This document shows, piece by piece, positions 13,540 to 57,274 of a DNA stretch of 64,000 bases; positions within the stretch are counted from its first letter, which is position 1, and each line of letters opens with the position of its first letter. The notes beneath the pieces were generated by a model that saw nothing but the letters and a program-made list of their open reading frames with translations, ran no database searches and was not told the origin of the DNA. A program made the position numbers and the translations under genes. This stretch comes from Candidatus Kaiserbacteria bacterium (lineage in GTDB: Bacteria > Patescibacteriota > Minisyncoccia > Phycocordibacterales > UBA2100), in the NCBI GenBank assembly GCA_016186765.1, contig JACPLD010000002.1, forward strand, positions 35,272-99,271, in the 5' to 3' direction.

Positions 13540-13594
13540 CAGCTATTCACAGCCCCTCCCGAGAGAGCTTGCGCCCAGTGTACAATGCCTTTAT

Positions 13595-21163: not shown

Positions 21164-21166
21164 CCT

Positions 21167-34923: not shown

Positions 34924-34942
34924 TGATGGTATACTTGCCTCA

Positions 34943-41470: not shown

Positions 41471-41605
41471 ATGAAACGAACCTATCAGCCGAAAAAGCGC
41501 AAGCGCGCGCGAACGCACGGGTTTCTGAAGCGATCACGTAGCCGCGGCGGACGGCGCGTGCTCATGCGACGGCGCCGCAGAGCGCGCGCGCGGCTTTCTG
41601 CATAG
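41471..41605 (+). CDS. rpmH: 50S ribosomal protein L34
   Basis: [44 protein letters not shown], 44 aa; below the ORF-track length cutoff. Confidence 0.85.
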
Positions 41606-41608
41606 GCA

Positions 41609-41941
41609 ATGAAGAGAAACTCTCGCCTGACGCGCGTCGATTTTCCGGCTGCCCGCGTACGGGTACGATTCCACGGCGCGTTTTTCTCGCTCTCGGCCTC
41701 GCCGCTATCGCGCGAGCGTCAGACCTCGTTCACATGCGTTGTTTCGAAGCGCGTCGCGCAGAACGCGACGCAAAGAAATCTCATCAAGCGTCGCTGTCGC
41801 GAGGCCGTGCGTGCTCGTTTACGGACATTCACGGCTGAAACACCGCCCGCACTTGTGTTTCGCGCAAAAAAGGAAGCCGCAGGCGCGTCGTTTAGTATGA
41901 TAAAGCGTGATGTAGACACTCTCGTCGATAAAATTTCATAG
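41609..41941 (+). CDS. rnpA: RNase P protein component
   Basis: Position after rpmH; basic; KRRCREAVRARLR motif. Confidence 0.7.
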   Translation: MKRNSRLTRVDFPAARVRVRFHGAFFSLSASPLSRERQTSFTCVVSKRVAQNATQRNLIKRRCREAVRARLRTFTAETPPALVFRAKKEAAGASFSMIKRDVDTLVDKIS

Positions 41942-41994
41942 AGCCTTCTTCGTACTCTATACTCCATACTCCATACGCGGTACAATCTGCGACA

Positions 41995-42714
41995 ATGATC
42001 TCCGCTGTGTTCCATGTGTTCATCTATGACCCGCTCTACAACGGGCTCGTTTTTTTGGTGGGCATTATGCCAACGCACGATGTCGGCCTTGCCGTGATCG
42101 TGCTCACCATCTTGGTACGCGTACTTCTCTTTCCTCTCTCGCGCCGCGCTGTGGAGACGCAGCTTGCGATGAAGAAGATCGCACCAGACGTCGAACGTCT
42201 CAAGCAGAAGTACAAAGCAAACCGTGAGGAGCAAGCAAAAGCACTCTTTGCTCTCTATCGCGAGCATGGCGTTCATCCTTTTGCGAGTATCGGACTTCTT
42301 CTGGCGCAACTCCCGGTCCTCTTCGCACTCTACTGGATATTCGCCAGCGGCGGCTTGCCGGATATTCATCCCGAGCTTTTGTATTCGTTTATTTCCCCGC
42401 CGGAAGGTGTGAACATGGCCTTCCTCGGGCTTCTTGACATGGCGGGGCACAGCATTGAGCTCGGCGTTTTGGCTGCGATCACGCAGTTTGTGTACACACG
42501 ACTCTCGATGGGCGCTCCAGAAAAAAAGTCTGCGGGAGAAAGCGCAACGTTCTCAGCCGATCTCGCGCGCAGCTTTGAGGTGCAGGCGCGCTATGTGCTT
42601 CCTGCGACGTTCGTGGTGCTCTCCTTCTTTATCCCAAGCGCGGCTATGCTCTACCTTACGACGAGCAACGCGTTCATGATCGGACAAGAGCTCTTTGCGG
42701 GGAGAAGGTTTTAG
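41995..42714 (+). CDS. yidC: Membrane protein insertase YidC (short form)
   Basis: Five TM helices and the YidC/Oxa1 pattern LLAQLPVLFALYWIF; located after rnpA. Confidence 0.8.
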   Translation: MISAVFHVFIYDPLYNGLVFLVGIMPTHDVGLAVIVLTILVRVLLFPLSRRAVETQLAMKKIAPDVERLKQKYKANREEQAKALFALYREHGVHPFASIGLLLAQLPVLFALYWIFASGGLPDIHPELLYSFISPPEGVNMAFLGLLDMAGHSIELGVLAAITQFVYTRLSMGAPEKKSAGESATFSADLARSFEVQARYVLPATFVVLSFFIPSAAMLYLTTSNAFMIGQELFAGRRF

Positions 42715-42791
42715 GCTTTAGAAGGTTTAAGGTGTCAGGTGTAAGGGGAAAGAATTTGCCTTATCCCTAAAACCTTTCCCCTGCTACCTTC

Positions 42792-43319
42792 GTGCTGTAT
42801 AGTGCCCCGATGAACGATACCGTCGGTTCGACTATCGAAACGATATTGAAGGAACTTTTAGATGCCACCGGAGTAGCTTATACGGGTATTTCACGTAGCG
42901 ATGTTGCCGGGCAGGCAATTTTCGCTATTTCTGCTGACGATGGGCGGACCCTCATTGGCACGCACGGCGATACGGTGCACGCACTCGACCATCTGGTAAA
43001 AAAGATCGTCGAGAAACGCCTTGGCGGAACCCGCGAGACAGTGGAAGGTGGGGGTGCTGAAGGAGAACGGCCCGAACTTCACTTTTTAGTCGACGTGAAC
43101 GATTACCGAGCGAAGCAGATCAAAGAGCTCCAACAGAAGGCTCTCATGATGGCAGAGCGGGCGCGTTCGTTCCAGTATGACGTTGAACTCTCTCCGATGA
43201 CTGCCTACGAGCGTCTCATCATTCACACGACGCTGCAGAACGAGCCGAATGTGAAGACGGAGTCGCAGGGCGAGGGGCGCAATCGCCGCGTCGTGATCCG
43301 CTACACCAGCGCCGCGTAG
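42792..43319 (+). CDS. Jag/KhpB RNA-binding protein (KH plus R3H)
   Basis: Position after yidC and a C-terminal R3H-like segment. Confidence 0.7.
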   Translation: MLYSAPMNDTVGSTIETILKELLDATGVAYTGISRSDVAGQAIFAISADDGRTLIGTHGDTVHALDHLVKKIVEKRLGGTRETVEGGGAEGERPELHFLVDVNDYRAKQIKELQQKALMMAERARSFQYDVELSPMTAYERLIIHTTLQNEPNVKTESQGEGRNRRVVIRYTSAA

Positions 43320-43328
43320 GAGAATTGT

Positions 43329-43772
43329 TCAATAGAGGGGCGGAGCTGTCCGACCGCCGCCGACGTTTGCTCCTTCGCGGAAGCCGATTTCCAGTTTTAG
43401 AATGTCCGGATTGATCTGATAGAGGATGAGCCAGACCGCAAGCAGGAGAAAGAGGCCGAGGAGTGTATCTCTGATTATCTCTTTCGCCCTGTCTTTCGAT
43501 GTCCAGAGGTCACTCGACATGTAGACGAAGCCTGCCCACGCGAGCCGCAGGACCGCGAGTATGGCACCGGCCGCGATCGCGCCGACAAAAACTCTGTTCA
43601 TGAATGGACCGAGTTCAGTCTCGCTGTATGCACCGCGGAGTTTCGGCGAGTCGCCAAAGCTCTCAAGCGGAACGAATACCTGCGCGGATGCGATATCAAC
43701 ACTCAGCGCAACAATTGCGCAAGAGGCAACCAGAATGAGCACGAAGAGGATCCTTGTACGAGGAAGCGTCAT
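43329..43772 (-). CDS. Putative T4SS pilin-like protein (VirB2/TrbC-like) with signal peptide and two TM helices
   Basis: Signal peptide (ILFVLILVASCAIVALSVDIASAQ) followed by a small two-TM mature part; last gene of the T4SS-like operon. Confidence 0.35.
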   Translation of the reverse strand: MTLPRTRILFVLILVASCAIVALSVDIASAQVFVPLESFGDSPKLRGAYSETELGPFMNRVFVGAIAAGAILAVLRLAWAGFVYMSSDLWTSKDRAKEIIRDTLLGLFLLLAVWLILYQINPDILKLEIGFREGANVGGGRTAPPLY

Positions 43773-43773
43773 A

Positions 43774-44991
43774 CTATTCTTCGATGCGCAAAAGCCAGAG
43801 CGTTTTGTCGATCGCGTTCCCGAAGGCGATGTAGTTCCCGTTCGCATCGATTGCAGGCTCTTCGACGTCGAAGGTCGTATTTGCAGATCCGTAGAGCGGC
43901 TCGGCCGCGTTTGCGCTCACATCGACTTTCCACCACGCGTCGGATGTGTGCATCTCCCCCCGGTACCATGCATCGAGAAAATTCGTAGGTGGAAGTTGCT
44001 GCGGCACCGCGCAATACGCGGTGAGCGCAGAGGGAGCCCACACACATTTGTCGGCGACGGTGCGAATCGGAAGAAGGACCGTGGAGATGGCGTCAGTTCG
44101 GGCGAAAAGTGATACGTTCTGTGCCGAAGATCCATAGAGGTGCGCGGAGAGCTTCGGGTGCGGCAGGAACGTAAGGCCTTGCACGTTCTCGACGATTGGC
44201 TGAAGTGAATTTTCCCGCACGAGGTACGCGTGCCCAGCCGCGTTATCGGAGGCATTTTCGACGGCCGTGATTCTGCCATCAGAGAGAAAATCGATCTGCC
44301 AGCCCAATACTGCCGAATCGAAGATCTTTTTTTGTTTTTTTTCGTCCCACGAGGTGCGAATACCTGCGCTGCCTTGGAGCGTGTCGACAATGTAGAATAG
44401 TTCTGCGCCACTTGGATCCATCGCGATTGAGCGGATATTGTTTACGAGACGTCTCTGCTTGAGGGTAGCCGGCGCCTGCGGAGATGTGCTTGTGGAAATT
44501 TCTCCTGCAACAGTCGCGACGGCTCCGGCCTCGTCGATGCCGCGCATAATCACGCGATCGCCTGCGACGAGCGCTTCGTAGGTACGCGGCACGAGCGTGT
44601 TGGTGAGGCGTTCGAGCGCGCCCGTTTCCGGAGAGACGTCGAAGATGTATCCCGATCCGCGCTCGACGAAGCGCAGCTGCGACACCCCATCCCTTTGGAC
44701 GAAGGCATGCCCCGCCGTTGGCGTTTTCCCGACCTGTGTGAGACGAGGTAGTCCGTTTTCTTCGCTCTGTATGATCCCACCGACAAGCGTGGAGAAACTC
44801 GAAACGATGTTCTCATACGTGCTCCCGATCTGCTCGCTAAACGGCTGTGGCAGTCCTATGCCGCGTCCCACGTCCTCCTCGGTTATGTTCGTCCTCTCTT
44901 CTTTGAGGAAAAAGTACCAGCCGGCGAGCGCTGCGAGCATCACGACGACGAGAGCGATGAGCACGTATTGAATGATTGAAATCGGCTTCAT
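43774..44991 (-). CDS. Hypothetical membrane-anchored protein, T4SS-associated
   Basis: N-terminal TM (MKPISIIQYVLIALVVVML) and a beta-rich ectodomain. Confidence 0.45.
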   Translation of the reverse strand: MKPISIIQYVLIALVVVMLAALAGWYFFLKEERTNITEEDVGRGIGLPQPFSEQIGSTYENIVSSFSTLVGGIIQSEENGLPRLTQVGKTPTAGHAFVQRDGVSQLRFVERGSGYIFDVSPETGALERLTNTLVPRTYEALVAGDRVIMRGIDEAGAVATVAGEISTSTSPQAPATLKQRRLVNNIRSIAMDPSGAELFYIVDTLQGSAGIRTSWDEKKQKKIFDSAVLGWQIDFLSDGRITAVENASDNAAGHAYLVRENSLQPIVENVQGLTFLPHPKLSAHLYGSSAQNVSLFARTDAISTVLLPIRTVADKCVWAPSALTAYCAVPQQLPPTNFLDAWYRGEMHTSDAWWKVDVSANAAEPLYGSANTTFDVEEPAIDANGNYIAFGNAIDKTLWLLRIEE

Positions 44992-44996
44992 ACTTG

Positions 44997-46037
44997 TCAC
45001 TCGCTTCCCACAAAGGGAGCTTGAGCGCCAGCGCTCTGGAAATTTACCAGCCACGAGCCAGGCGCATTGATGAAAAGATTTGTAGCATGCTTGAGCAGGA
45101 GCTCAATGAGTGCGCTTCCACTCGAGCCAGATGCGTTGATCGTGAGTCCACTCGGGTGCTCTGGATCATTTGCGATCCCAATATCATTCACGCGCCAATT
45201 GTAGATTAGGGCGGTATCATCGGGACTTGCAGCCTCGGCGAAGTATGGCACGGCAGCAAATGTCGTCTCTATCTCGGGGATCTGATTCTCGCGCGCAAGC
45301 GCGCGGTGGTAGGCGATGCCGAACACCGGATCGTTCTCGTAGAGTGCGACGTGTGGTTCCTGCGAACTGATGCGCGCGCTTGCAACACCCTGGAGTCTCC
45401 CATCGGATGTTTTTGCTTCTACCGATATCGTCTCGGAGGCAAACAGTGGTGGGCTCTCGACAGTAGCTTTCGACTTGCCGCGGCCCGATGCCGCAGCTAT
45501 CACGTAGCCGTCTCTTTTCCAGGTGAAGATAATGTCGCGCAGTGGTACTGAAGAGCCGCTTCGAACAAAGCGAGGGATCGCCTCGAGACGGAGGTTCGTG
45601 CCGGCTGAAGGGAGCGCGCGTCCGCGATAGAACGGCGGCACGTACGAATCCGCTTCCCATAATAAGTCGAGCTCGACGGGGGCAATGGTCGCTTCGGCTG
45701 AGGAAAACTCTAGAGCGTTTTCTAGTGCGGTGACCGTCAGTTGTGTCTCGCTCCCGAGCGCTCCTGCAGTCACGTCAACCTCGGTGACGCCAATTCCCTC
45801 CGCGATAGGTTTACCGTTTGCGCTCCACCTAAGTTGCGTTTCTGAAAGATCTAGGAGGCTCGAGCGCGCTCGCGCGTGCAGGCGCTCTCCCGGCGCGGGA
45901 TGCGCCGGGGTGAGCTCAAGCGCGAGGTCGACGCCGAAGATGAGATCGAACTGGGCGTACGCGGGCGGAGCGGCCATTAGTGCCAAGCAAAAAAGGGTAC
46001 AAAGAAGGAGCGCGTTTCGCATCGCCATGACCGGCAT
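44997..46037 (-). CDS. Hypothetical secreted protein, T4SS-associated
   Basis: Signal peptide MAMRNALLLCTLFCLALMAAPPAYAQ. Confidence 0.45.
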   Translation of the reverse strand: MPVMAMRNALLLCTLFCLALMAAPPAYAQFDLIFGVDLALELTPAHPAPGERLHARARSSLLDLSETQLRWSANGKPIAEGIGVTEVDVTAGALGSETQLTVTALENALEFSSAEATIAPVELDLLWEADSYVPPFYRGRALPSAGTNLRLEAIPRFVRSGSSVPLRDIIFTWKRDGYVIAAASGRGKSKATVESPPLFASETISVEAKTSDGRLQGVASARISSQEPHVALYENDPVFGIAYHRALARENQIPEIETTFAAVPYFAEAASPDDTALIYNWRVNDIGIANDPEHPSGLTINASGSSGSALIELLLKHATNLFINAPGSWLVNFQSAGAQAPFVGSE

Positions 46038-46085
46038 TATACCGCGCTCTTCTGTCGCTCCTGGACAAGGCAGGGCATGCGAGCA

Positions 46086-48032
46086 TCACATCGTCGTCTT
46101 TGAGGCCTGCGCATCATCTCGTGCGAGAACCGATTTAAGGCGGGCACCTGCGCTATCAGGAGCTCGTATCTGTGCCGCCTGCGGGATCCCAGCTGGTGTA
46201 TCTCCCGGGAGCTGCCCCGCATTCGCGAGTTCTTGCTTCGCCTTTTTGATCGCGAGGATCTGCGAAGGGTCGGATGTGATGATCTGGTCTTCGGTATAGC
46301 TCGCGATTACCTTGATCGCGACGTGCTTTAGCCCAGCGAAGAAAATGCCCTCTCCCACATCCGACTCGAGCAACAGGTACTTTTCTTCATCGGAGAGTTT
46401 AAACGTTTGCTGAACGAGGTCGACCGAGGTTGGCGATTGCCGAAGAAGGATTTGGATCGAGGAGTTGGTGATCATCGGGATGCCGTAGGGAGAGTTGAGG
46501 AAGTCGGAAACATCCTGCGTGATCGTCGAGATGCCGAGGTAGTACTTGCGCCCGCGCTTCGCGATCCCGAAGAGGAAGGAGGCAGTGTCCTCGCTTCGCA
46601 TCATCCACCACGCCTCGTCGATCACGAGGAGTCGCTTGCGCAGTTCTTTTCTCACGGTGTTCCAGATGTAGTGCGTGATGATGTACATCGCGACAGGTTT
46701 GAGATCGTCCTCCATGTCGCGAACAGAAAAGACGATGAGCTTTTTGTTCATGTCGACGTTCGTGGGCCGGTTCATGAACCCAGCCCACGTCCCCTTCGTG
46801 TATTTGGAAAGGCGCGCGACTAATGACTCCGAGCCTTCCATGCCGGATAGGACGAGCTCGAAGTCGGAAAGCAAGGGCGGCTCGACGGATGCGAAGTTTG
46901 CCTCCGCGGTGATGTCTTTGAGGGCGTAGGTTTCGGTGATCGCCTTGTCGATGACCGCATCCTCCTCGGGCGTGAGGCCGCCTAGCATGATGCGGAAGAG
47001 CCCCACGAGCGAGATGATGTTGTTGCGCAGCACGTCGGAAGGGTTTTCGTCTTCGCGCGGGATGGGAAGATCGAAGGGATTGATGTGGTGCTCGGATGAA
47101 AGGGAAATGTTGAAGTAGCGTCCGCCGACGGTTTCAGCGAGGTACTCGTACTCGCGCTCGGGGTCGATGACGATTACCTCGGCGTCGAACATGAGGGAAC
47201 GCAGTATCTCGAGCTTCGTCATGTAGGATTTGCCCGCGCCGGATTTCGCGAATGTCACCGAGTTGTAGTTCTCTAAGCTAAAGCGGTCGAAGAGGATCAG
47301 CGAGGAGTTGTGGCGGTTGATGCCGTAGAGAATGCCGCGATCGCTTGTGAGGTCGAAGGAGATGAATGGAAAGATTGATGAGAGCGGTGCAGAGTTGAGT
47401 TTCGTGTGTACGTCGAGCTCGTCGAGAGCAAGCGGCAGCACTGAGCGAAATCCTCCTTCCTGCTGGAAAAGCGCTGGACGGATGTAGACGAGGCGACCCT
47501 CGAGAATGGAGCGGACCTCGCTTTCGATCTTGTCGACCTCCTCGCGCGTCGCGCCGTAGATGGTGAGGTAGAGGCCGACTTCAAAGATGCGCTCCTGCGC
47601 CTGCTGCAGGGAGTCGCGGAGCTTCTCGAGGTCTTGGTAGGCAGTATCGAGCACTGGGTCGCGAACCATCCCCTTCTCCTCACGCGTCGCGATCTGGCTC
47701 TGCACCTCCGCCACTTTTTTCTGGAACTTGCGGAGCACCTCGATGGTATCCATCGGATGCACGAGGATCGAGATATCGATCACCTTGTCCATGTTGATGA
47801 TGGGCGCAAACCATCCCGTTGTGAGGAAGCGCGGGTAGGAGATCACGAAGAACGTGCGGGCAATCTTTTCGCCAAGGTCGATCTCCCGCGAGCTGATCCT
47901 AAGCGCGTGTGGCGCGATCACGTCTTGAAGCGATAGTACGCCGGTCTTGTAGATCTCCTCGGGAAGAACAGGCAGCACCGCTGCTGCAGGCGCAGTCTTC
48001 TTTTTGAAAGGGAGGAGGTCGGTAAATGCCAT
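46086..48032 (-). CDS. VirB4/TrbE/CagE-family T4SS ATPase
   Basis: Walker A FAKSGAGKSY, Walker B LLVIDEAWWMM, and a VirB4-like N-terminal domain. Confidence 0.8.
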   Translation of the reverse strand: MAFTDLLPFKKKTAPAAAVLPVLPEEIYKTGVLSLQDVIAPHALRISSREIDLGEKIARTFFVISYPRFLTTGWFAPIINMDKVIDISILVHPMDTIEVLRKFQKKVAEVQSQIATREEKGMVRDPVLDTAYQDLEKLRDSLQQAQERIFEVGLYLTIYGATREEVDKIESEVRSILEGRLVYIRPALFQQEGGFRSVLPLALDELDVHTKLNSAPLSSIFPFISFDLTSDRGILYGINRHNSSLILFDRFSLENYNSVTFAKSGAGKSYMTKLEILRSLMFDAEVIVIDPEREYEYLAETVGGRYFNISLSSEHHINPFDLPIPREDENPSDVLRNNIISLVGLFRIMLGGLTPEEDAVIDKAITETYALKDITAEANFASVEPPLLSDFELVLSGMEGSESLVARLSKYTKGTWAGFMNRPTNVDMNKKLIVFSVRDMEDDLKPVAMYIITHYIWNTVRKELRKRLLVIDEAWWMMRSEDTASFLFGIAKRGRKYYLGISTITQDVSDFLNSPYGIPMITNSSIQILLRQSPTSVDLVQQTFKLSDEEKYLLLESDVGEGIFFAGLKHVAIKVIASYTEDQIITSDPSQILAIKKAKQELANAGQLPGDTPAGIPQAAQIRAPDSAGARLKSVLARDDAQASKTTM

Positions 48033-48038
48033 AGGCGT

Positions 48039-48124
48039 TAGCCACTAGCCACTAGGGTTTAGGGGGAGCAAAGTTGAATTTCATAGGTATTCTCTAATGG
48101 CTAATTACTAGTGGCTATTGGCTG
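48039..48124. repeat. About 85-nt palindromic intergenic element (AGCCACTAGCCACTAG ... CTAGTGGCTATTGGCT)
   Basis: Inverted homologue of 14596-14673, lying directly upstream of the virB4 start. Confidence 0.7.
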
Positions 48125-48780
48125 TTCAGTGGCATTGGCTTGCCCGCTTCGCCGGGGTTGAAGAGTTTATAGAAGAGCTCAATTGCTTCCTCGGTTCCCA
48201 ACTGTACCGTGCGCACGCCGGTGCGGATCAATCCTTGCTGCACGATCGCAACACGCTGCTCGAGCTGCGAGACCTGCTCCTCGAATGTTCTGTTTGCGTC
48301 AGCCGCAGTAGCCTTCTTCTTGTTCCACGGCAGCATCGACGCAGGGCCGCCTTTCCCGATCGGCGCGAGCGAAGGTGCATACGGCACGACGACGAAGAAA
48401 TTTTTCGTCATGATGTTTGCTGCCTCCGTAAAGCTCTTAATGAATTCTATGTATTCGCGTATCTGGATGCGCATCAGGTCATCGAGTTGCTCTTTGAAAC
48501 GCTCTTCGAGCGTTGCAACGTACGGACGGATATCGAGCATGCGTGATTGTACGAAGATCTGCACGGAGAAGTCGAGCGAGTTGAGAAAGTTCTGGAATTG
48601 CAGGAGGAATGCGCTCTGTTCGTCTTCCGATTTCAGCGCGAAGTTGAGTGAGGAAGCAAGGAGTATCGCGCGCAACCCCCCACCTTTCAGGATGACGATG
48701 CCGTCGCGTACCTCGGCAATCGGCACGAATTCCTGTGCCGATCTCTTGCCAGCGCCGAGGGTTTGGAGGGGTGTGGACAT
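48115..48780 (-). CDS. Hypothetical protein resembling a VirB4 N-terminal domain
   Basis: FVPIAEVRDGIVILKGG...NFALKSEDEQ...FLNSLDF.VQI pattern, as in the N-termini of conjugative VirB4 ATPases. Confidence 0.4.
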   Translation of the reverse strand: MSTPLQTLGAGKRSAQEFVPIAEVRDGIVILKGGGLRAILLASSLNFALKSEDEQSAFLLQFQNFLNSLDFSVQIFVQSRMLDIRPYVATLEERFKEQLDDLMRIQIREYIEFIKSFTEAANIMTKNFFVVVPYAPSLAPIGKGGPASMLPWNKKKATAADANRTFEEQVSQLEQRVAIVQQGLIRTGVRTVQLGTEEAIELFYKLFNPGEAGKPMPLNSQ

Positions 48781-48782
48781 GG

Positions 48783-49271
48783 TTATTGGACAAGCGCCTC
48801 GCGAGCTGTTCGCACGGGTGCGACGATGCCACCGACGTGTTCACGGTCCTCTGCGACCCCCGCTGCGATCCGCTCCTTGATGTCGAGACTCCACGCGAGC
48901 TCGTGCAATTTGCTTTCGGCGAGCTTTGGAATGTAGACTTCCGATGTAGGCTCGATTTTCTGTTCTCGCTTGCCTGTTTTCTGTTTGCTTCTCAGCTCAT
49001 TGCTCCAGAGATAGAGCTTGCTTCGTACAAGGTAGTAGAAGCCATTTTCCAAACCGAGAACGAAGGGGCGGCCGTTCCACTGCAGGAACGCGAGCGCTGC
49101 CGCAAGCCCCCCGATGCCAAGTATCAGTGGGCCCGCGAGATAGAGCGGGAGCACACGCCATAGGAGGTACGCCGCACCGGCGCCACCTGCCATATAGATG
49201 AACTGCTTGAAGGTGAGCGGTCCGAAGATCTTGTCTTCGACCTCGATGAATTGGGGGACCTGAAATTGCAT
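48783..49271 (-). CDS. VirB3/PrgI-like small T4SS membrane protein
   Basis: 162 aa, two TM helices near the N-terminus, immediately upstream of the VirB4-like genes. Confidence 0.4.
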   Translation of the reverse strand: MQFQVPQFIEVEDKIFGPLTFKQFIYMAGGAGAAYLLWRVLPLYLAGPLILGIGGLAAALAFLQWNGRPFVLGLENGFYYLVRSKLYLWSNELRSKQKTGKREQKIEPTSEVYIPKLAESKLHELAWSLDIKERIAAGVAEDREHVGGIVAPVRTAREALVQ

Positions 49272-49306
49272 ACTCGAGAGAGCAGCGAACAGAGAACAGC
49301 GAACAG
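49272..49306. repeat. GAACAG heptad repeat block (AGCAGCGAACAGAGAACAGCGAACAGTTAACG)
   Basis: Same heptad family as 38537-38618; inverted partner at 49669-49708. Confidence 0.75.
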
Positions 49307-49687
49307 TTAACGCAGTTTCGCGCGGAGCGCGTACAGCATTCTGCCGGTTTCGTCCAGCTGCATCTCAATTGTACTACAGTCTTTTTCGGTACAGTACGAG
49401 AGTTCTTTCGCAATTGTGAGGAGGGTTTCGAGCTCAGTCAGCGAGCCGTGCGATATCCTTAGAAAGTTTGCAAATTCCTTGGGAGTATTTCTTCCGTAGC
49501 CTTCGGCAATATTGGCTGCGACAGAGACTCCAGCACGCCGCATTTGGGAAGTCAGGGCAAATAGCTCATCTTTGGGAAATTTTTTCGTCAGTGTATATAC
49601 TCCAAGCGAAAGCTCAACGGCTTTCTGCCAAACCAAAAGCTTTCTATAAGAATGGCTACCCTCTAGATTTTTCTGTTCTCTGTTCAC
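49307..49687 (-). CDS. Four-helix-bundle protein (23S rRNA intervening-sequence protein family)
   Basis: YRKLLVWQKA...LTSQMRRAGVSVAANIAEGYGR...SLTELETLL. The N-terminus MNREQK is encoded by the heptad repeat itself. Confidence 0.7.
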   Translation of the reverse strand: MNREQKNLEGSHSYRKLLVWQKAVELSLGVYTLTKKFPKDELFALTSQMRRAGVSVAANIAEGYGRNTPKEFANFLRISHGSLTELETLLTIAKELSYCTEKDCSTIEMQLDETGRMLYALRAKLR

Positions 49688-49708
49688 TGTTTTCTGTTAT
49701 CTTGCTCA
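49669..49708. repeat. GAACAG heptad repeat block (complement: GATAACAGAAAACAGTGAACAGAGAACAG)
   Basis: Inverted relative to 49272-49306; the pair brackets the four-helix-bundle gene. Confidence 0.75.
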
Positions 49709-50314
49709 CTGCGGCGGTTCTCTGTAGGGATCGTCGTGAATATCTTTGCGCGCACTCGAGGGCTCCCCAGCTCTATATGCTCCTGAGGTTGGACCGCGAA
49801 CGGCCTTCTCGGTTCCCTGTGGAGGTGGAGGTGTTGCCGGTACGACAGGAAGTGGTGCTGCAATCACTGAAGTGTTTTCCTCCCTTTCCCCTATAACCTT
49901 TCCCCTATCACCTGTACTTGCAAGCACCTGCGCGCGTGTTGCCTCGACGCTACTCACCTCTTTTTCTTTCGCCTCCGGATGCTCGAGTTCCCGCTCGAGT
50001 TCTTGCCGAATGGGCTCAAACACGATGCGCGAGACATCACTTGCAAGAGAATTTGTAACTTCATCAGAAACTTCAAGGTCAGCTTTTAAGTTTTTTGCCA
50101 GCTCTTCTGGCGGCTGAAATCCAAGCAAGGTGAGCATCACGTTGTTTTCGAGCAGTTGCCACTGATCCAAATGCAGATGTTTTGTGTCGGCGAGCTCACG
50201 CAGCTGTTTTTGTATGCCCACGGATGTTATGGCATCTTGGACGACCTTAGGCAGCTCTTTGAACCGATCCTGGATTTTTTCGTCGAGCTCTTTTTTTGAG
50301 ATGTCAGCGTTCAT
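49706..50314 (-). CDS. Hypothetical acidic/coiled-coil protein
   Basis: Start at MNADISKK, 5 nt after the VirB6-like stop; Pro-rich C-terminus. Confidence 0.35.
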   Translation of the reverse strand: MNADISKKELDEKIQDRFKELPKVVQDAITSVGIQKQLRELADTKHLHLDQWQLLENNVMLTLLGFQPPEELAKNLKADLEVSDEVTNSLASDVSRIVFEPIRQELERELEHPEAKEKEVSSVEATRAQVLASTGDRGKVIGEREENTSVIAAPLPVVPATPPPPQGTEKAVRGPTSGAYRAGEPSSARKDIHDDPYREPPQ

Positions 50315-50318
50315 ATCA

Positions 50319-52790
50319 CTATGGCGTGCGCGGTGGCGGCGGTGCTTGCGGTGGAGGAGGAGGCGAAGGCGCAGTTTCGGCCTGAACGCTTGCCACCACA
50401 TCTCGCAGATTTGCAGTCCGTACTCTCTTCTTGTACAGGTCCCGCGTATTCTGTGCAACTATCTCGTTTGCTCCGGTTAACTTGCCGATCGCACGGGTCA
50501 GAACGTCGCCCGATCTTCTTCCAACTCTCTCCGCGATGTTCGCTGCGCTCTCCCCCATTGCTGCCACGATTTCTTTTCCTATTTGCTCGGTTTGCTCTTC
50601 GTATTCACCCACAGCCTTTTCCGCTTCTTTGACGGGGCGCTCGAGCACATCTATGCGCTGCTGAATGAGCTGTACGGCCTGTCTTGCTCTTGCAATGCGC
50701 TGGTCTTCAATCTTCATTTCAGCACTGCGGCGCGCGATGTCGGCAGGTGAACCGGCGCTCGCTCTAAATCTTTCCTCGATTACGACTTTGTTTCGAGATG
50801 CGCTGCCCTCTTCGTTCTGAGCATGCTGTTGCGTGGCGATAAGCTTTTCACCCAGCTGCTCGAATCTCTTTACAGTCTCCGCATTTGCTCGCTCCGCATC
50901 CCGCCTCACCTGAAGGTCTTTGAGCCCAGCTTCCCGCTTCTCTCGTACCTCCTGCTTTGCTTTTTCATTTTGATCTGCAGAAGGCGCGATTTTCGCGGCC
51001 TCTTTCTCTGCAGCTTCCGTTCGAGCTTTTATCTGATCTGCGTAGCTCTTCGTGGCTTTGACTGATTCTCCCGTGAAGTCAGCCCCAGCAGCCCTCGCGG
51101 CGCTCTTCATCACACCAGTATCCATGATGTTCATTCTGCTTTCGGCGATTGCACTGCCACGCGCTGCTCGCCGCAGCTTTGTATCTGCAAATCCCTCCAG
51201 TCTCCGGGCTTTTGCGGCCGCCTCGTCCGCTGCTTTCGTGTAGCCTGCTCTGCGAAACCCTGCCTCTTCTTGTCGTGCCGCCCCTGCTTCGTCGCGTGCC
51301 TCGCGTGCCTGCTTGAGTCGGCTCCTCTCGTATCGGTAGCCAAGCCACCCGGCCGTCTGGCGAAGAGCTGGAGCGACAAGGAATCGCGAGCCTGCGGTTA
51401 AGGGGAGTGCGCTGAAAGCTGTTGCGAACCTGAAGCCAGCAATGGAGCGAGCGAATGCGTTTGCGGATATGACGGACACGATGAGAAGACCGATTACAAT
51501 GACGTAATTGAAAAGCGCTTCGAGGTTCAAGGTCTGGCTCGGGTCGGCGACCATAGCGCCGAGCGTTCCACTTTGGGGTAGGGCCTGCGCAACCTTGAGC
51601 GACGCCCACAAGAAAATCATGAGAATGGGGGCAAATGTCGCAGCTTTGATCAGCGACTGCCACCACGTTGAGAATCCTTTTCCGATGAATTGCTGCGGAA
51701 TGAGCCAGCTTGCGAACGCAAGCGCGGACGTCATCATGAGGAAGATGAGCAGCACGGCTCGTGCGATGAGCAGGAAGGAGGCGTAGAGAAACACCCCCGC
51801 CGCAATGAGGAGGAGAGTCGCAGACACGAGCCCGTGCAGGAGGGCGTACCAGCCGTTTGCATTGGTGAATTTGTTACTTTCGTCGCCGAAGGCTGCGCGA
51901 GAGAGCGCCTGGTACGTTTCTGCCATCGTCGCGATACCCATCACTTTGATGAATTCACCCGCGATACCTGTTTTTACGAACTCGGTATCGAATGCTCCTT
52001 GCAAATTTCGTGATTCGCTCTGGAAGCCGCTTGCTCTGACGAATTGCAGCGCGGTGAAGTTTGATGCATCGATAATCGCTTTACTGAAAAGGAGGCTGAA
52101 ATTAATCAGCACGGCGACGATAAGCACGCGCGCGATCAACTTCTTTTCTCCAAACTCTTTTACGCCGAGGATGATGTTTATTGCAATGAAGACGAACATC
52201 GAGATGATAACGATATTGGCAAGGTCTCGGAGCGCGGTCCATCCAACCTCGATTGCCTGACGCACCTCCGTTCTAAGCAGCGTCTCTCCAAACTTGACGA
52301 CCGTGTGATCTATTAGAAGGTTGAATAGGTACCCGGCGGTAGCAAGGAGCCACGCTGTCGCTGTAACAAGGGCGGTGCCGATGACAGTACTTACCAGTCT
52401 GCCGAAACACGTGATGCCAAACCAATCAATGAGCGATTCACAGCGATTTCCAGCGACTGGCGTAGATCCCTCGACTTTCTTTCCTTGACTGTCAACGCAG
52501 ATTGGTGCTACGTAATATGTTCCGGTTCCGGGTGTCCTTGTCCATTCAGCGGCAACACTTTGTCCAGCTGGACATGTATGGGAGGACGTATCAATAGCTG
52601 TGCCGTAACCTACACGGTCGTCAAACTCTCTCCTGCACTCAACTCTTCCGCTGGAGAGTGTCGTCATGGTTGAACCAGGGGGACATACATAGTTCTGTGC
52701 TTCGGCTACCGTTGTTGTGGCTAGTTGGATGGCAATACTCATACCAATCAACAAAGGGACAAATATAAGGATCAGTTTTTTCCTTGCGGA
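50319..52790 (-). CDS. VirB6/TrbL-like polytopic T4SS membrane protein with a long C-terminal coiled-coil/Pro tail
   Basis: Signal peptide, Cys-containing ectodomain, at least 6 TM helices, then about 350 aa of charged coiled coil ending in PSPPPPPQAPPPPRTP. Confidence 0.5.
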   Translation of the reverse strand, partial: SARKKLILIFVPLLIGMSIAIQLATTTVAEAQNYVCPPGSTMTTLSSGRVECRREFDDRVGYGTAIDTSSHTCPAGQSVAAEWTRTPGTGTYYVAPICVDSQGKKVEGSTPVAGNRCESLIDWFGITCFGRLVSTVIGTALVTATAWLLATAGYLFNLLIDHTVVKFGETLLRTEVRQAIEVGWTALRDLANIVIISMFVFIAINIILGVKEFGEKKLIARVLIVAVLINFSLLFSKAIIDASNFTALQFVRASGFQSESRNLQGAFDTEFVKTGIAGEFIKVMGIATMAETYQALSRAAFGDESNKFTNANGWYALLHGLVSATLLLIAAGVFLYASFLLIARAVLLIFLMMTSALAFASWLIPQQFIGKGFSTWWQSLIKAATFAPILMIFLWASLKVAQALPQSGTLGAMVADPSQTLNLEALFNYVIVIGLLIVSVISANAFARSIAGFRFATAFSALPLTAGSRFLVAPALRQTAGWLGYRYERSRLKQAREARDEAGAARQEEAGFRRAGYTKAADEAAAKARRLEGFADTKLRRAARGSAIAESRMNIMDTGVMKSAARAAGADFTGESVKATKSYADQIKARTEAAEKEAAKIAPSADQNEKAKQEVREKREAGLKDLQVRRDAERANAETVKRFEQLGEKLIATQQHAQNEEGSASRNKVVIEERFRASAGSPADIARRSAEMKIEDQRIARARQAVQLIQQRIDVLERPVKEAEKAVGEYEEQTEQIGKEIVAAMGESAANIAERVGRRSGDVLTRAIGKLTGANEIVAQNTRDLYKKRVRTANLRDVVASVQAETAPSPPPPPQAPPPPRTP

Positions 52791-52795
52791 CATAA

Positions 52796-54373
52796 CTATA
52801 TCTTCCACCGCTCTGCCCAGAGGCGCGGAATGTCTGCGTTGTTGATGTTGCACCAGCCGGTCGAAGGAGAGGGCGAGTCGCCCCACGCTTGAGCGGTGTC
52901 TTGGATGAGTGTCTGCATAGCGCTTGCAACGTCGTCGCGCTGCTTGAGCGCGTTTTCCGCATCAAACCTCGTATGTAGTTCGCGCTCTGCGACTAAGGTA
53001 TCGAGCTGCTGGAGCGCAATACGTTGTGCATTCTGCGATGCCGTGTTGGTGACGCCCGCAATGAGTTGATCGATGAGCCCGAGCGCGCGCCGCGAATTCT
53101 GGACGTTTGTGAGCGCGGCATTGGCAAGAGGCGCGATCTGCGAATCGATAACCTGCTGCGAGAACGCAAGCGAGCTCGTGGAAGTGTTGATCTTGTTCGG
53201 GTCGAGCGTAAGGCCGCTTTGGGTGGCGTAGTTCTGCGCTCTCGGCACGACAAGCTCCCAGCACGCGCGTTCCATGTTTCGGAGCTGGTTGATGGCCTGC
53301 GTGAGGTTTGCAGCGATCGCCTCCATTGAGGCGAGGTAGCGGCCCTCGATCTCGCGGCTCGCATTGAGGATGCTAAGCGCTGCATTCACCGCCGCCCCAA
53401 TGACGCCTTGCGAAGAGTCTCTCGCTACTTGGTCGATGTACGCGGGCTGCCCTCCCCTACTCTGCATGATGCCTGAGAATCCGCGGTTGTCGGAGATGAT
53501 CTGCGTCGTTACCCCTGCGTACAGCGCACTGATCATCTCTCCAATGTCATCGGCGCTCTCAAGTTGCCGGACCGACGAGCCGAGGATCTGCTGGAACGAT
53601 TCCTGTACGACGGAGGATGGCGTCAAGATCTTTTCTTGGAATGGATCCTGTGCGTTGTCGGTGAGGGCATAGAAGCCGCGGCCCCAATCCCAGACCATTT
53701 TCTGATTTTCGACGGCTTGTGCATCACGTGCGTCCGCCAGATCTTCGAAGTACAGTGCGGCAAGGTGTGGTATGCATACGGGATTCGTCATTGCAAATAT
53801 TGATCCGATCGGATCATCCGATTGGTTTTGTATCCTGGCGTTGATGTCGTCGTAGGGACACTTGAGAAGGGATTCCGGCGCTCTCGTTTCTTGTTGGTAC
53901 GTGGCCGCGCTCCAGCGGACTATATTGTCCCTAAATATGGGCGTGAGTCCCTGTGCTGTGTCGCCCGTCAATGTTGTCAACCTTGACCTGTCTCTCACGG
54001 CCAAAAGCTCTGCTTCAGGATCTACGACGTAGCGCTTGTTGCCTTCGCGGCCAGTTTCTATCGCAACGCTGGCTCTCTTCAAGAGTGCGCTCATCGCGCT
54101 TTCGCGCAGACGGTCCTGGAGCGGTCGCAGCACGCACTCTTTGTAGACGAGGATGCCGGTGTTCAAGGTTACTGCAGCGTCGTTGACCGGGACGTAGACG
54201 CCACCGATCGCGGCAAGCGTACCCGCCGAGGCATTGGCGCCCGCAGTCTGATTACATCCAAAAATACCCTCATTTTTAAACTGGTAGTTGTTTTGCGCAG
54301 CTGCCGCGAAGGGCACGGCGCTCAAGCTGATCCCAAGCAAAGCAATTTGGACATGTCGCAGGTAGGGCGTCAT
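52796..54373 (-). CDS. Large secreted hypothetical protein, T4SS-associated
   Basis: Signal peptide ALLGISLSAVPFAAAAQ; 525 aa. Confidence 0.45.
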   Translation of the reverse strand: MTPYLRHVQIALLGISLSAVPFAAAAQNNYQFKNEGIFGCNQTAGANASAGTLAAIGGVYVPVNDAAVTLNTGILVYKECVLRPLQDRLRESAMSALLKRASVAIETGREGNKRYVVDPEAELLAVRDRSRLTTLTGDTAQGLTPIFRDNIVRWSAATYQQETRAPESLLKCPYDDINARIQNQSDDPIGSIFAMTNPVCIPHLAALYFEDLADARDAQAVENQKMVWDWGRGFYALTDNAQDPFQEKILTPSSVVQESFQQILGSSVRQLESADDIGEMISALYAGVTTQIISDNRGFSGIMQSRGGQPAYIDQVARDSSQGVIGAAVNAALSILNASREIEGRYLASMEAIAANLTQAINQLRNMERACWELVVPRAQNYATQSGLTLDPNKINTSTSSLAFSQQVIDSQIAPLANAALTNVQNSRRALGLIDQLIAGVTNTASQNAQRIALQQLDTLVAERELHTRFDAENALKQRDDVASAMQTLIQDTAQAWGDSPSPSTGWCNINNADIPRLWAERWKI

Positions 54374-55170
54374 GATTGTTTTTGCTTCTCGTATGTCGCG
54401 AGCGCGTCGAAGCTGCTGAAGAGCCGCAACTCCGTCTCGTTGTAGGTTCTCAAGAGTGCAGCTGATGCGAATGGGTCATCCGAATATTCGGTCAGGCGTT
54501 CGACGACAGCGGCGAATTCTGAAAGTGCGTTCAAAACCCCGATGTGCTCGGAGAGGGCGTCTTCCGGCACGACGATGTTCGCAGTGTTCTCGATCCCGGC
54601 GCGGTAATTTTTTGCGGCGCTCTTCAGCTGCTCGAGGTAGCGCGCATCGTGTGTCTCGATGTAGGTGGCAAAAAGCTCTAGCTCATATCCTGGGTTCTTG
54701 AGCAGAGGCTCGAGCGCGATCCGGAGGTCGTTGCGATAGGCGAGCATTCGCTCGTACGAGATGTCAGCGTCAGTCTTGATGTCTCTCCCATCGTATGCTT
54801 CGTACGAGACGCTCGCTTTCAATGAGCCGGCGATGTCTTTGGCGATTTTTTCGCCCTCCTCCGTCGTGTACGATCCGCTCTCTGCGAGCGTGGCGTACGA
54901 GCCAACCAAGGCACCGATCACATTTTCTGCGATGTGTGAAATGCCATCCTCGTCTTCTGGCGTTCCCGCGAGGGATAGGGCATCAGGAGAATCTCCCGTG
55001 AGCGGGACCTGCCAGTTGATGCTCCCATATGGCGTTCTCGCGATGTTCGATGTACTCACCCCTCCGTTTTTCGCGCTCACAAAACGTCCACCCTGCGAAA
55101 CGGTCTTGTATCCTTGTGCAAATGCGACGATCAGGAGTGCTGCGACCGCGAGAGCTGCGACTATCTTCAT
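54370..55170 (-). CDS. Secreted hypothetical protein, T4SS-associated
   Basis: MKIVAALAVAALLIVAFAQG signal peptide; the stop overlaps the next start (ATGA). Confidence 0.4.
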   Translation of the reverse strand: MKIVAALAVAALLIVAFAQGYKTVSQGGRFVSAKNGGVSTSNIARTPYGSINWQVPLTGDSPDALSLAGTPEDEDGISHIAENVIGALVGSYATLAESGSYTTEEGEKIAKDIAGSLKASVSYEAYDGRDIKTDADISYERMLAYRNDLRIALEPLLKNPGYELELFATYIETHDARYLEQLKSAAKNYRAGIENTANIVVPEDALSEHIGVLNALSEFAAVVERLTEYSDDPFASAALLRTYNETELRLFSSFDALATYEKQKQS

Positions 55171-55320
55171 AGGCAAAGAGCGCTCGAGCTGAACGTGTCG
55201 AGTTTCCACGCTAAAAGTATACCTCCTATATGGGGAATTCACGGGGATAACGCGTGGATAGGGAGCAGGTTTAAGGGGAAAGGTTTCAGGTTTCTTAACC
55301 TAGCACCTTGCCCCTAACAC

Positions 55321-56208
55321 CTATAACCCTACTTGCGAGAATGTGAAGATGCTTCCGGCATCTTCGGGTGCAAACGAAACGCCGTATGCCGAAATGAGCG
55401 TTGCGAGCGAGACGTAATTCCTCACGTAGGCTTCTACCGCTGCGTTATATGCGAGCATGGCATTGAGTACCGCCTCGTCAGTATTTGCCTCTGGAACGGC
55501 AGAGAGTTTCGCGCCGAGCTCCCGGTAGCTTGCGGCCACCTTCTGGTGCGAGCTTACTATCTCAGAGGGTACTTCCATCTCGGCGAGTTGCTCTCCCACA
55601 TCCCCGAGCGCGCGCGCGAGTGAGAGGAGCACGGCATTTTTCTCAGGATCTTCTCTGTCTTCGAACTGGTCTTTGAGGATCTGCGGTGCGCTACGGTACA
55701 TGTCTTCGAACGACTGAATGTATAAGCCAGCCTCGTTGCCATAGTTGAAAAGCGCTTGCTGTGTGGGTGTCAGCTCCTCTCCCCTCGTCGACGTGCTTAT
55801 GAGGGTGAGCGGGATAAATGAGTACGCGTCGAGCGCGGGAGGAGCCGTGCTTCCATCACCCGCCGCGACACGTGGAGGAGCCGAGAGTAGTGCGACGAAT
55901 GCGTCGAAGTCGAAGTCGATCTCGCTTTGCGGTTGCGCGAGCGGAAGTTGTTCCGTTGCTGTCGTGTAGTAGAACGGAGGACCGCTCAGCACTTGCGTGT
56001 AGAGATTGTCTGCAGGGGTGGAGGGCAACTGCCTTACGCCGACGTTCGTCGGGTCGAAGAGGTTGCTCCCGACGCCGCCCCATGCGCGAATACCAGATGT
56101 CTGAGGGTTCACATCAGAGCGGTTTACGACGATAGTTCCGCCGATCACAAGTACAAGAATTGCACCCCCAAACGCGGCGATGTATGGGTGCGCGAAGAGC
56201 CAGGACAT
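55321..56208 (-). CDS. Membrane-anchored hypothetical protein, first gene of the T4SS-like operon
   Basis: N-terminal TM AAFGGAILVLVIGGTIVV. Confidence 0.4.
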   Translation of the reverse strand: MSWLFAHPYIAAFGGAILVLVIGGTIVVNRSDVNPQTSGIRAWGGVGSNLFDPTNVGVRQLPSTPADNLYTQVLSGPPFYYTTATEQLPLAQPQSEIDFDFDAFVALLSAPPRVAAGDGSTAPPALDAYSFIPLTLISTSTRGEELTPTQQALFNYGNEAGLYIQSFEDMYRSAPQILKDQFEDREDPEKNAVLLSLARALGDVGEQLAEMEVPSEIVSSHQKVAASYRELGAKLSAVPEANTDEAVLNAMLAYNAAVEAYVRNYVSLATLISAYGVSFAPEDAGSIFTFSQVGL

Positions 56209-56320
56209 AGGGTATAGGGTACAGGTGTTAGGTTATAGGGGCAATGCAGAGAGGTGAGTTTCTCCTAGAACCTGAAACCTAGAACCTGATCCCTGTGCAA
56301 AGAGTGATACAATTTTTCCC

Positions 56321-57274
56321 ATGACAGCGCGAGTTGTCTCAATTGCGACAATTGTCTTTGTCGTCAGTCTGTTGCCACTCTTTGCACACGCGTTTCCCTT
56401 TGGGGGCAGGGCCTCAATTGTCTTGCAGTGCGTATACAACTCCACGATCTACGTGAACCTCGGCCCGCCGCGCGGCGGCGAATTTATCTGGACGACGGGG
56501 ACGAAAACGTACCAGTTCGGTCCCCCGGCGCGCTCCGGCCAGTGGCTCTTGGGACTTGCCGGTGCTCCGTACTACTGTATCTACCGCATCTCTCCCCTCA
56601 CGATCTACACGGGCATCGCTATAACGATGATGGGTTCAAGCGGGCCCGGGGCTCCAGCAGCTCCGCCAACCCGCGGGCCGACTCCGCCCGCGCCCTCTCC
56701 GGCTCCGTCTCCCGCACCCTCGCCTGCTCCGGGTCCGACCCCGACCCCCACTCCGACTCCACCTCCGCCGCTCCCGTCCCCGAGCGCTTTGGGCAAAGTC
56801 GTGATAAGCGAGGTCTACGTGGCGGTCGATTCTGCTCACGGCACCAAGCCCTCGGGTGAATGGGTCGAGCTCTACAACGGTTCGGGCGCAATGATGGACG
56901 TGTCCGGATGGACATTGCGCGACGACTCAGCTACCTCGACGATCCCTTCGGGCACCACACTTGCTGCCGGCAGATTCCTCGTTATGTTTGCAAGTTCGGC
57001 TGCCAAGGCCTCTTGGAATGTTCCGACAGATGCCAAAACCGCTTCGCTCACAGGTATCATCGGCAACGGGCTCTCTTCCTCAGGCGACATCGTTACCTTG
57101 AGGAACGCTTCCGGAGCAACAATCGATGCTGTATCGTGGGGAACGAACACGAACGCTTTCAATCCGAGCGCTCCGGTCACGTCGACCGGCAACTCGCTCT
57201 CGCGTCTCAACCTCTCGCAGGATACCGATAGGGCGAGTGACTGGACTGTGCGGTCTCCCTCTCCGGGCAAGTAG
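56321..57274 (+). CDS. Secreted lamin-tail-domain (LTD) protein with a Pro/Ser/Thr linker
   Basis: Signal peptide; PAPSPAPSPAPSPAPGPTPTPTPTPPPP linker; LTD core VVISEVYVAV...EWVELYNGSGAMMDVSGWTLRDD. Confidence 0.65.
   Translation: MTARVVSIATIVFVVSLLPLFAHAFPFGGRASIVLQCVYNSTIYVNLGPPRGGEFIWTTGTKTYQFGPPARSGQWLLGLAGAPYYCIYRISPLTIYTGIAITMMGSSGPGAPAAPPTRGPTPPAPSPAPSPAPSPAPGPTPTPTPTPPPPLPSPSALGKVVISEVYVAVDSAHGTKPSGEWVELYNGSGAMMDVSGWTLRDDSATSTIPSGTTLAAGRFLVMFASSAAKASWNVPTDAKTASLTGIIGNGLSSSGDIVTLRNASGATIDAVSWGTNTNAFNPSAPVTSTGNSLSRLNLSQDTDRASDWTVRSPSPGK

Follow-up and report, generated by a model that had tools for sequence, protein, structure and literature searches.

A type IV secretion system of the published patescibacterial kind beside the replication origin of a Candidatus Kaiserbacteria chromosome

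Patescibacteria carry type IV secretion systems (T4SS) whose VirB4 ATPases form a monophyletic clade nested in MPF_FATA, according to the survey of 3,035 Patescibacteria genomes by Quinonero-Coronel et al. (2025, Microb Genom, PMC12102498). In that survey TrsD is the commonest associated component, PrgI/VirB3, VirB6 and VirB2-like pilins also occur, relaxases are nearly absent, and the genes for type IV coupling proteins (T4CP) lie far from virB4 in most genomes. The genes sit near dnaA, dnaN, rnpA, ksgA and rpmH, the proximity to dnaA and dnaN being explicit for Paceibacteria; the part of the genome table considered here holds more than 1,000 rows of Paceibacteria and at least 58 of Kaiserbacteria (PMC12102498). 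Wang et al. (2023, Cell, PMC10633639) showed by transposon sequencing (Tn-seq) that the cluster SEML1_0006-0019, homologous to the one studied here, is essential when Southlakia epibionticum grows as an epibiont; they noted its pilins and its lack of coupling and relaxase proteins, and PMC12857230 likewise gives this cluster as essential. Reviews have speculated on roles in effector export, as a conduit or in the uptake of host molecules (PMC12857230; PMC11665869). Here we analyse one locus of this kind, positions 43329-56208 of a 64,000-nucleotide stretch of a Candidatus Kaiserbacteria bacterium (GenBank assembly GCA_016186765.1, contig JACPLD010000002.1, forward-strand positions 35,272 to 99,271). 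We call the whole stretch the window, and all positions below refer to it.

We conclude with considerable confidence that this region encodes a vertically inherited, chromosomal and non-conjugative Patescibacteria T4SS, derived from MPF_FATA with a gained VirB2-type pilin. Since papers of 2023-2025 already describe the system, the window is a confirmed example of it and not a discovery. The new points are minor: the invariant head-on orientation of the genes, fold-level support for VirB6 in Paceibacteria, the paralogy of the first two genes and the presence of cassettes resembling the intervening sequences (IVS) of 23S rRNA, which carry a gene of the 23S_rRNA_IVP (IVP) family. The survey mentions neither orientation relative to replication nor IVP cassettes (PMC12102498).

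The region is a row of 12 consecutive minus-strand open reading frames (ORFs), numbered g1 to g12 from first to last (Table 1), and 97.9% of its span is coding. With start codons picked from N-terminal signal or transmembrane segments and from orthologue alignments, the successive gaps are 78, -4, 2, 4, 18, 35, 2, 82, 48, 5 and 1 nt. An earlier note on this DNA had counted twelve or thirteen minus-strand genes with gaps of 0-80 nt, which agrees with our twelve genes and gaps of -4 to 82 nt. It had also counted several ATGA overlaps because it took the longest ORFs; only one is real, at the g2/g3 junction, where the stop of g2 overlaps the start of g3 by 4 nt. Two genes come in addition to that description: g5, cytoplasmic and conserved, and g6, a 23S_rRNA_IVP ORF. 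A scan for promoters and terminators found no more sites than chance would give and is therefore uninformative, and the Rfam scan matched tRNAs alone. In the NCBI annotation, the products HYW60_01795 (782 aa; g4 region, 50319-52886) and HYW60_01765 (326 aa; g10 region, 44997-46037) are annotated from starts that lie past the predicted signal peptides; with the ATGs further upstream, at 52793 and 46037, both the signal peptide and the tight spacing return.

Table 1. Positions of the T4SS genes, inserted elements and origin-side features in the window
Feature	Position	Strand	Description
g1, bitopic membrane protein, first gene	55321-56208	-	295 aa; transmembrane residues 10-28, helical C-terminal domain
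g2, signal/anchor plus helical domain	54370-55242	-	266-290 aa; likely start 55170
g3, secreted protein	52796-54373	-	525 aa; conserved cysteines
g4, extended VirB6-like polytopic channel protein	50319-52793	-	824 aa; longest ORF to 52886
g5, cytoplasmic protein	49706-50314	-	about 202 aa; conserved N-terminal domain, disordered Pro-rich tail
g6 cassette, 419-nt insertion	49277-49695	-	between g5 and PrgI gene; 126-aa ORF 49307-49687
g7, PrgI/VirB3-type small membrane protein	48783-49271	-	162 aa; two transmembrane segments
g8, TrsD-like, free-standing homologue of VirB4 N-terminal domain	48115-48780	-	221 aa
TrsD/VirB4 spacer hairpin, long loop	48033-48114	-	82 nt; RNA fold -17.7 kcal/mol, z -2.2
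g9, VirB4-family ATPase	46086-48032	-	648 aa; middle and C-terminal parts of full-length VirB4
g10, secreted, repeated Ig-like beta-sandwich units	44997-46037	-	346 aa; signal peptide; directly downstream of VirB4
g11, N-terminal transmembrane anchor (residues 4-22)	43774-44991	-	405 aa; longest ORF to 45054
g12, VirB2-type pilin, last gene	43329-43772	-	147 aa; signal peptide and two hydrophobic helices; longest ORF to 43847
rpmH, rnpA, yidC, jag (classical origin-side set)	41471-43319	+	convergent with T4SS operon
rpmH	41471-41605	+	peptide read from translation
dnaA	39944-41302	-	
Likely oriC, AT-rich dnaA/dnaN spacer	39717-39943		two near-consensus DnaA boxes at 39758 and 39852
dnaN	38622-39716	-	

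The five T4SS components named in the earlier note all stand. The VirB4 ATPase, g9, scores 356 bits against NF045971 (CD1110 family, NCBIfam; curated cut-off 325) over model positions 185-733, and matches PF19044 (P-loop_TraG, Pfam) with E 8e-25. Its nearest PDB structure is 4ag5, the C-terminal domain of Thermoanaerobacter VirB4 (E 3.7e-40), followed by R388 TrwK (E 5e-9), and its Walker A (AKSGAGKS, residue 262) and Walker B (LLVIDE, residue 468) motifs are both intact. The protein resembling a VirB4 N-terminal domain, g8, matches the TrsD model NF041427 at E 1.4e-6, under the curated cut-off and thus as a remote match, as well as the N-terminal positions 4-233 of the VirB4 models NF045975 and NF045971. 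These two kinds of match together indicate that VirB4 is split, as in the pGO1 subclass. The VirB3/PrgI-like protein, g7, passes the PF12666 cut-off of 27 with 37.4 bits (E 3.7e-9), and the VirB2-like small protein, g12, that of PF18895 (27.2-27.7 bits; cut-off 26.6); 29 of 30 g12 orthologues match PF18895 too, six of them also TrbC/VirB2 PF04956.

The polytopic protein of about 820 aa read as VirB6-like is g4, and here the evidence comes from structure prediction. Neither g4 nor its close homologues have a Pfam match, and among 29 more distant orthologues six match TrbL/VirB6. The AlphaFold model of residues 1-540 (pLDDT 83, pTM 0.70) has TrwI/VirB6 as its top four Foldseek matches in the PDB. 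After a signal peptide come a small beta domain that contains Cys, 6-7 transmembrane helices, a coiled coil of about 300 aa and a tail rich in proline. From this predicted fold we accept g4 as a VirB6 extended by its coiled coil and tail. VirB7, VirB9, VirB10 and VirB11 have no Pfam or NCBIfam match in the row.

How is this locus inherited? We scanned one genome per GTDB species, confirmed at least 571 VirB4 relatives and kept 80 loci, which were ranked and chosen by VirB4 similarity and have VirB4 identities of 74-92%. All 80 are from Patescibacteria (Kaiserbacteria, Paceibacterota, Parcubacteria and others) or from unclassified 'uncultured bacterium', and the best non-patescibacterial VirB4 model is of MPF_FATA type. 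Proteins of the row have exact matches under the Candidatus Kaiserbacteria locus tags HYW60_01765, HYW60_01795 and HYW60_01800. The TrsD-like gene is present in 78 of the 80 loci, adjoining virB4, and the PrgI gene in 76. The gene order is conserved, uvrD-ksgA-(lamin-tail-domain gene)-g1-g2-g3-g4-g5-PrgI-TrsD-VirB4-g10-g11/pilin-[jag, yidC]-dnaA-dnaN, and looking in related genomes for conservation at the origin, as the earlier note had proposed, gave ksgA-T4SS-jag/yidC-dnaA-dnaN in 57 of the 60 species with enough flank. Loci with a more similar VirB4 also tend to have more similar DnaA, DnaN, YidC and KsgA (rho of the identities 0.52-0.71). In the same set of genomes the median identity is 78% for VirB4, 55% for DnaA, 40% for DnaN and 44% for YidC, these being loci chosen by VirB4 similarity, and the difference between VirB4 and DnaA points to strong selection. 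The surface parts g10, g11 and g1-g3 show identities of 27-39%. The operon has a GC content of 0.556, equal to that of its flanks. The synteny, the correlation with housekeeping genes and the flank-like GC together argue for vertical inheritance under strong selection and against an integrative conjugative element (ICE).

The lineage of the system is monoderm MPF_FATA (pGO1/CTn2-like) with a VirB2-type pilin, not the diderm VirB type. With the published Patescibacteria clade the row shares the MPF_FATA-type VirB4, an adjacent TrsD, PrgI/VirB3, VirB6 and the PF18895 pilin, no relaxase or T4CP nearby, and a chromosomal place by dnaA, dnaN, ksgA, rnpA and rpmH. It differs in having a single pilin gene, whereas S. 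epibionticum has a 6-gene pilin array, and in lacking a peptidase or lysozyme gene directly downstream of virB4. A hydrolase with two LysM domains and a peptidase M23 domain is encoded outside the row, 4 kb upstream of the operon past ksgA and uvrD (60352-61356, plus strand), and may be the 'VirB1-like' hit published near virB4 in Paceibacteria. When we compare with the monoderm MPF_FATA systems (pGO1/pSK41 Trs with TrsC, TrsD and TrsE; pCF10 Prg with PrgH, PrgI and PrgJ; CTn2 CD1110), the VirB4 over the CD1110 cut-off, the TrsD-like gene before VirB4 as in pGO1, the PrgI-type VirB3 and the lack of VirB7, VirB9 and VirB10 are shared. Yet the window has no relaxase, T4CP, recognisable VirB1 hydrolase, VirB8-like protein or LPxTG adhesin, and its system is fixed in the chromosome and not on a mobile element. 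It also has a VirB2-type pilin, which monoderm conjugation systems lack (PMC12102498). The likeness to the diderm systems (MPF_T, i.e. Agrobacterium VirB and R388 Trw, and Dot/Icm) lies in the fold of g4, which matches TrwI/VirB6 and DotA, in a pilin family overlapping TrbC/VirB2 and in a VirB4 homologous to TrwK. But VirB7-VirB11 are absent, the envelope is monoderm and g4 carries a 300-aa coiled-coil extension.

Six other proteins of the row have no family assignment. Five of them, g1, g2, g3, g10 and g11, have a signal peptide or transmembrane anchor, and these are the five secreted or membrane-anchored proteins that the earlier note had left without function. Profile searches of the PDB with g1, g2, g3, g4, g10, g11 and the pilin returned nothing significant apart from weak hints: g10 resembled Ig-like domains, g11 TolB and g1 designed coiled coils. 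The protein g10 is present in 78 of the 80 loci. Its alignment has a recurring W..NG motif, its orthologues weakly match BiPBP_C (5/35) and Ig_3 (3/35), and it weakly matches the Hoc Ig-like protein (E 0.012). On sequence grounds we take it as a conserved core partner made of predicted repeated Ig-like units. Its neighbour g11 is found in 69 of the 80 loci and has no Pfam match in any of 29 orthologues; weak TolB matches in the PDB profile search (E 0.0024) suggest that a beta-propeller possibly follows the anchor. The cytoplasmic g5, without transmembrane segment, has no family match in Pfam or NCBIfam and is found by BLAST in 47 of the 80 loci, and its slot between VirB6 and PrgI is kept in all six distant loci that we inspected.

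Of the first three genes, BLAST finds g1 only in the nearest 18 of the 80 related loci, and each of g1-g3 only in the nearest 18-26 species; genes of like size and topology fill the g1-g3 slots in the six distant loci. We regard g1-g3 as fast-evolving helical surface parts, and such fast evolution fits parts in contact with the host. The C-terminal helical domains of g1 and g2, which have no Pfam or PDB match, are paralogous (hhalign of family against family, 96% probability, E 3e-9, about 130 aa). Could g1 and g2 be VirB8-like? We judged this unlikely, as their sequences look helical and not NTF2-like and their profiles matched helical designs only. The predicted structure of g3 is a long helical bundle (pLDDT 79), and its place directly upstream of VirB6 suggests a VirB5-like role, a suggestion still unproven. 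The six more distant Paceibacteria loci also vary further down the row. Five of them (our loci L029, L037, L045, L066 and L073, at about 11.8-12.6 kb) have an extra small polytopic membrane gene between VirB4 and g10, fused to g10 in L029; neither the window nor L058 has it. All six, L058 included, have a longer gene for the pilin domain (235-355 aa), which stands before g11 rather than after it, at about 13.3-14.6 kb.

By analogy with the VirB/Trw and Prg/Trs systems, a VirB4 hexamer, together with TrsD, would dock on VirB3 and VirB6 at the membrane. VirB4 would then spend ATP to pull pilin from the bilayer into a short pilus or conduit on the VirB6 platform. The proteins g10, g11 and g1-g3 may be the wall-spanning and host-contact parts, replacing VirB8, VirB1 and adhesin components that are not recognisable here, and the machine would carry contact-dependent traffic with the host cell of the epibiont. 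The earlier note had called the row consistent with an epibiotic lifestyle, and the genome is indeed of epibiont type (Patescibacteria; Candidatus Kaiserbacteria, class Paceibacteria). As to what the traffic is, no relaxase or coupling protein accompanies the system and we therefore lean, tentatively and at best on balanced terms, to protein export or a contact conduit. We favour this over the import of DNA or nucleotides, and conjugation seems very unlikely.

Import would mean that host DNA, nucleotides or other building blocks enter through the T4SS and its pilus, feeding a cell that is unable to make nucleotides. Such a role has parallels in the Helicobacter ComB and the archaeal Ced systems. 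The VirB4 of the window partly matches the model of the DNA-import ATPase CedB (E 6e-9), but only some 70 residues are aligned, all in the shared P-loop region, and the scores of conjugative VirB4 models are much higher. The lack of an export-type coupling protein nearby would suit import, yet the row holds no recognisable nuclease or DNA-binding component either. The idea has been raised for Saccharibacteria, which can do without comEC but not without the T4SS (PMC11665869; PMC12857230). We thus consider import an unlikely, if coherent, alternative to export or a contact conduit.

Another rival reading is conjugation: the closest models of the VirB4 are conjugative (CD1110 of CTn2, the Mbov_0397 ICE family and TraC), TrsD and PrgI are families of conjugation systems, and an IS200-like transposase lies 8 kb away (34916-35647). 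The region would then be an ICE, or the remnant of one, inserted near the origin, with a T4SS serving DNA transfer between cells. Such an element should bring its own mobility genes. We scanned for them in the ORFs of the window, including every ORF of at least 450 aa and leaving out five shorter ones (133-344 aa). In the scanned ORFs there is no domain of VirD4/TcpA, relaxase (MOB), VirB11 or integrase, and three large ORFs without Pfam match are secreted proteins with no Walker A motif. The only ATPase of the T2SSE family, a PilB-type one (26654-28348), was considered as VirB11 and rejected: it has an MshEN domain and lies 18 kb away among unrelated genes. The 3.4 kb beyond the right end of the window hold no relaxase or coupling protein either, and no long flanking direct repeats or attachment repeats were found. 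In 57 of 60 species with enough flank the row sits in the same place, with ksgA on one side and jag/yidC/dnaA on the other, GC equals that of the flanks, VirB4 divergence follows that of the housekeeping genes, and relaxases were found in only 103 of the 3,035 surveyed Patescibacteria genomes (PMC12102498). Given the conserved synteny, the uniform GC and the lack of relaxase, T4CP and integrase, we reject the ICE, whose probability is slight.

Hence the claims of the earlier note that the row has no VirD4, relaxase or VirB11 and is non-conjugative are borne out, the latter by the missing relaxase, T4CP, integrase and attachment repeats and by a locus fixed in 57 species. That note had named a failed VirB4 assignment, or a relaxase or coupling-protein gene with attachment repeats nearby, as findings that would overturn its reading; the VirB4 assignment held, and neither relaxase, T4CP nor attachment repeats turned up nearby. 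The splitting of VirB4 in two genes and the unrelated cassette interrupting the row might suggest that an ancient conjugation system has here lost its function and is in decay. This is scarcely credible with all ORFs intact and Walker motifs present, a VirB4 more conserved than DnaA over 56 genomes, a TrsD/VirB4 split kept in 78 of 80 loci and typical of the pGO1 subclass, and a homologous system essential in S. epibionticum.

Some observations weigh against a non-conjugative Patescibacteria T4SS. The pilin of the window scores just 1 bit over the Pfam cut-off. No VirB8-like or VirB1-like part was found in the row. Co-transcription of the genes is deduced from their spacing only. Essentiality was shown in a single Saccharimonadia species, not in Paceibacteria. 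Finally, a VirD4 may sit elsewhere in the genome, T4CP homologues having been published far from virB4, which would leave DNA transfer within reach of the machine.

One gene of the row, g6, is not a part of the T4SS. It belongs to an inserted, unrelated cassette like the intervening sequences of 23S rRNA. Its ORF encodes a 23S_rRNA_IVP four-helix bundle (PF05635, E 2e-39), an inverted repeat (49277-49299 / 49673-49695) bounds the cassette, and a terminal stem of about 30 bp closes the cassette in both the minimum-free-energy and the centroid folds. The 23S IVS of Coxiella burnetii is 428 nt long with a 28-bp terminal stem and an S23p ORF, and is excised by RNase III (PMC4990558). The g6 cassette resembles such IVS in its length of about 420 nt, its terminal inverted-repeat stem, its PF05635 ORF, a GC under that of the host (0.47, against 0.559 for the remaining operon) and its sporadic occurrence. 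But it is not located in 23S rRNA: IVS occupy helix 45 of that molecule, whereas g6 sits between two protein-coding genes, in a spacer of an operon and hence of an mRNA. A match to the Avd protein of diversity-generating retroelements (bAvd) reached 33.7 bits against a cut-off of 40, and the scanned ORFs of the window contain no reverse transcriptase domain, so we discarded this identity.

Homologues of g6 occur sporadically, in 16 of the 80 related loci, and nearly all of them lie within the T4SS row and share its strand, filling either the slot between g5 and PrgI or that between TrsD and VirB4. Cassettes of this type were noted in L004, L014, L016, L023, L027, L049, L057, L059, L060, L064, L065, L069 and L076, and they often stand between simple-repeat arms that are complementary to each other, with duplex z-scores as low as -7. 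The TrsD/VirB4 spacer is mostly 1-6 nt long in related loci. In five it measures 440-675 nt, with an IVP match in four of the five, and in the window and eight other loci (L004, L005, L007, L009, L014, L016, L049 and L068) it is a 76-167-nt hairpin with simple-repeat arms, the loop of which contains 'AAAATAC..ATG' in several cases. The hairpin of the window is probably what remains of an IVP cassette without its ORF. Other spacers in and around the row (42697-42791, 55243-55320 and 56209-56300) have hairpins in which purine-rich, AGGTTTAAGGGGAAAGG-like arms are paired with pyrimidine-rich arms, with fold z-scores of -2.7 to -3.1 and no U-tract after them. They look like the arms bracketing IVP cassettes in other species, and a further copy of the AGGTTTAAGGGGAAAGG-like motif lies inside g5 (49880-49917).

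The position of the row relative to the origin can be given with some precision. The cumulative G-C minimum falls at 39757, on a DnaA box in the dnaA/dnaN spacer (AT content 0.60-0.68). The 3' end of the operon is thus about 3.6 kb away from the likely origin, and it is 2.0 kb from dnaA. The earlier note had the operon starting about 2 kb from dnaA/oriC. It is indeed next to the origin region, but it is the 3' end that abuts it and the start, at 56208, is the far end. Head-on transcription, also claimed there, is confirmed: dnaA was found in 57 of the 60 loci with enough flank and lies on the operon strand in all 57, so that the operon, encoded on the lagging strand, meets the fork head-on. 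In 64 of 64 loci yidC has the other orientation. In the window the origin-side genes include rnpA (PF00825), yidC (PF02096) and jag (R3H/KH), and the convergent jag and pilin genes have their stops 9 nt apart (43319-43329), too close for a terminator to fit between the origin-side genes and the T4SS row.

On the right flank a divergent surface protein with a lamin-tail domain is followed by ksgA and uvrD/pcrA. Secreted proteins of this kind are encoded at 56321-57274 and at 19211-20212, both on the plus strand; the former points away from the T4SS promoter region, a place that it keeps in 19 of the 80 loci. Farther away, the window contains type IV pilus genes (PilM, PilN-like, PilB with MshEN) that are dispersed (8208-9857, minus strand; 26654-28348, plus strand) and apart from the T4SS. 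The IS200-like Y1 transposase ORF (plus strand) is 4 kb from dnaN. Two free-standing LAGLIDADG ORFs abut tRNA genes, one (12462-13472, plus strand) tRNA-Ser (13458-13540) and the other (21167-22024, plus strand) tRNA-Lys (21091-21165), and GC falls to 0.48-0.51 around both.

One might speculate that both the head-on position near the origin and the IVS-like spacer cassettes are functional, the latter as RNase III processing sites. We hold this joint reading to be quite improbable, and neither the functional position nor the RNA processing figures in the published descriptions of the system. If it were true, the position would tie the dosage of the T4SS to replication initiation and head-on conflict would speed change in g1-g3. 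Cuts at the cassettes would split the long transcript into segments of differing stability, setting the ratio of structural to ATPase subunits.

Few machines are known to be essential to the epibiotic life of Patescibacteria, a very large and mostly uncultured group, and the T4SS is one of them. The window gives a clean and fully annotated Kaiserbacteria example of it, and the predicted fold supports the VirB6 assignment in Paceibacteria, for which sequence profiles are mostly of no help. It also names conserved partners that structural or genetic work should include, namely the Ig-repeat protein g10, the anchored g11 and the cytoplasmic g5.

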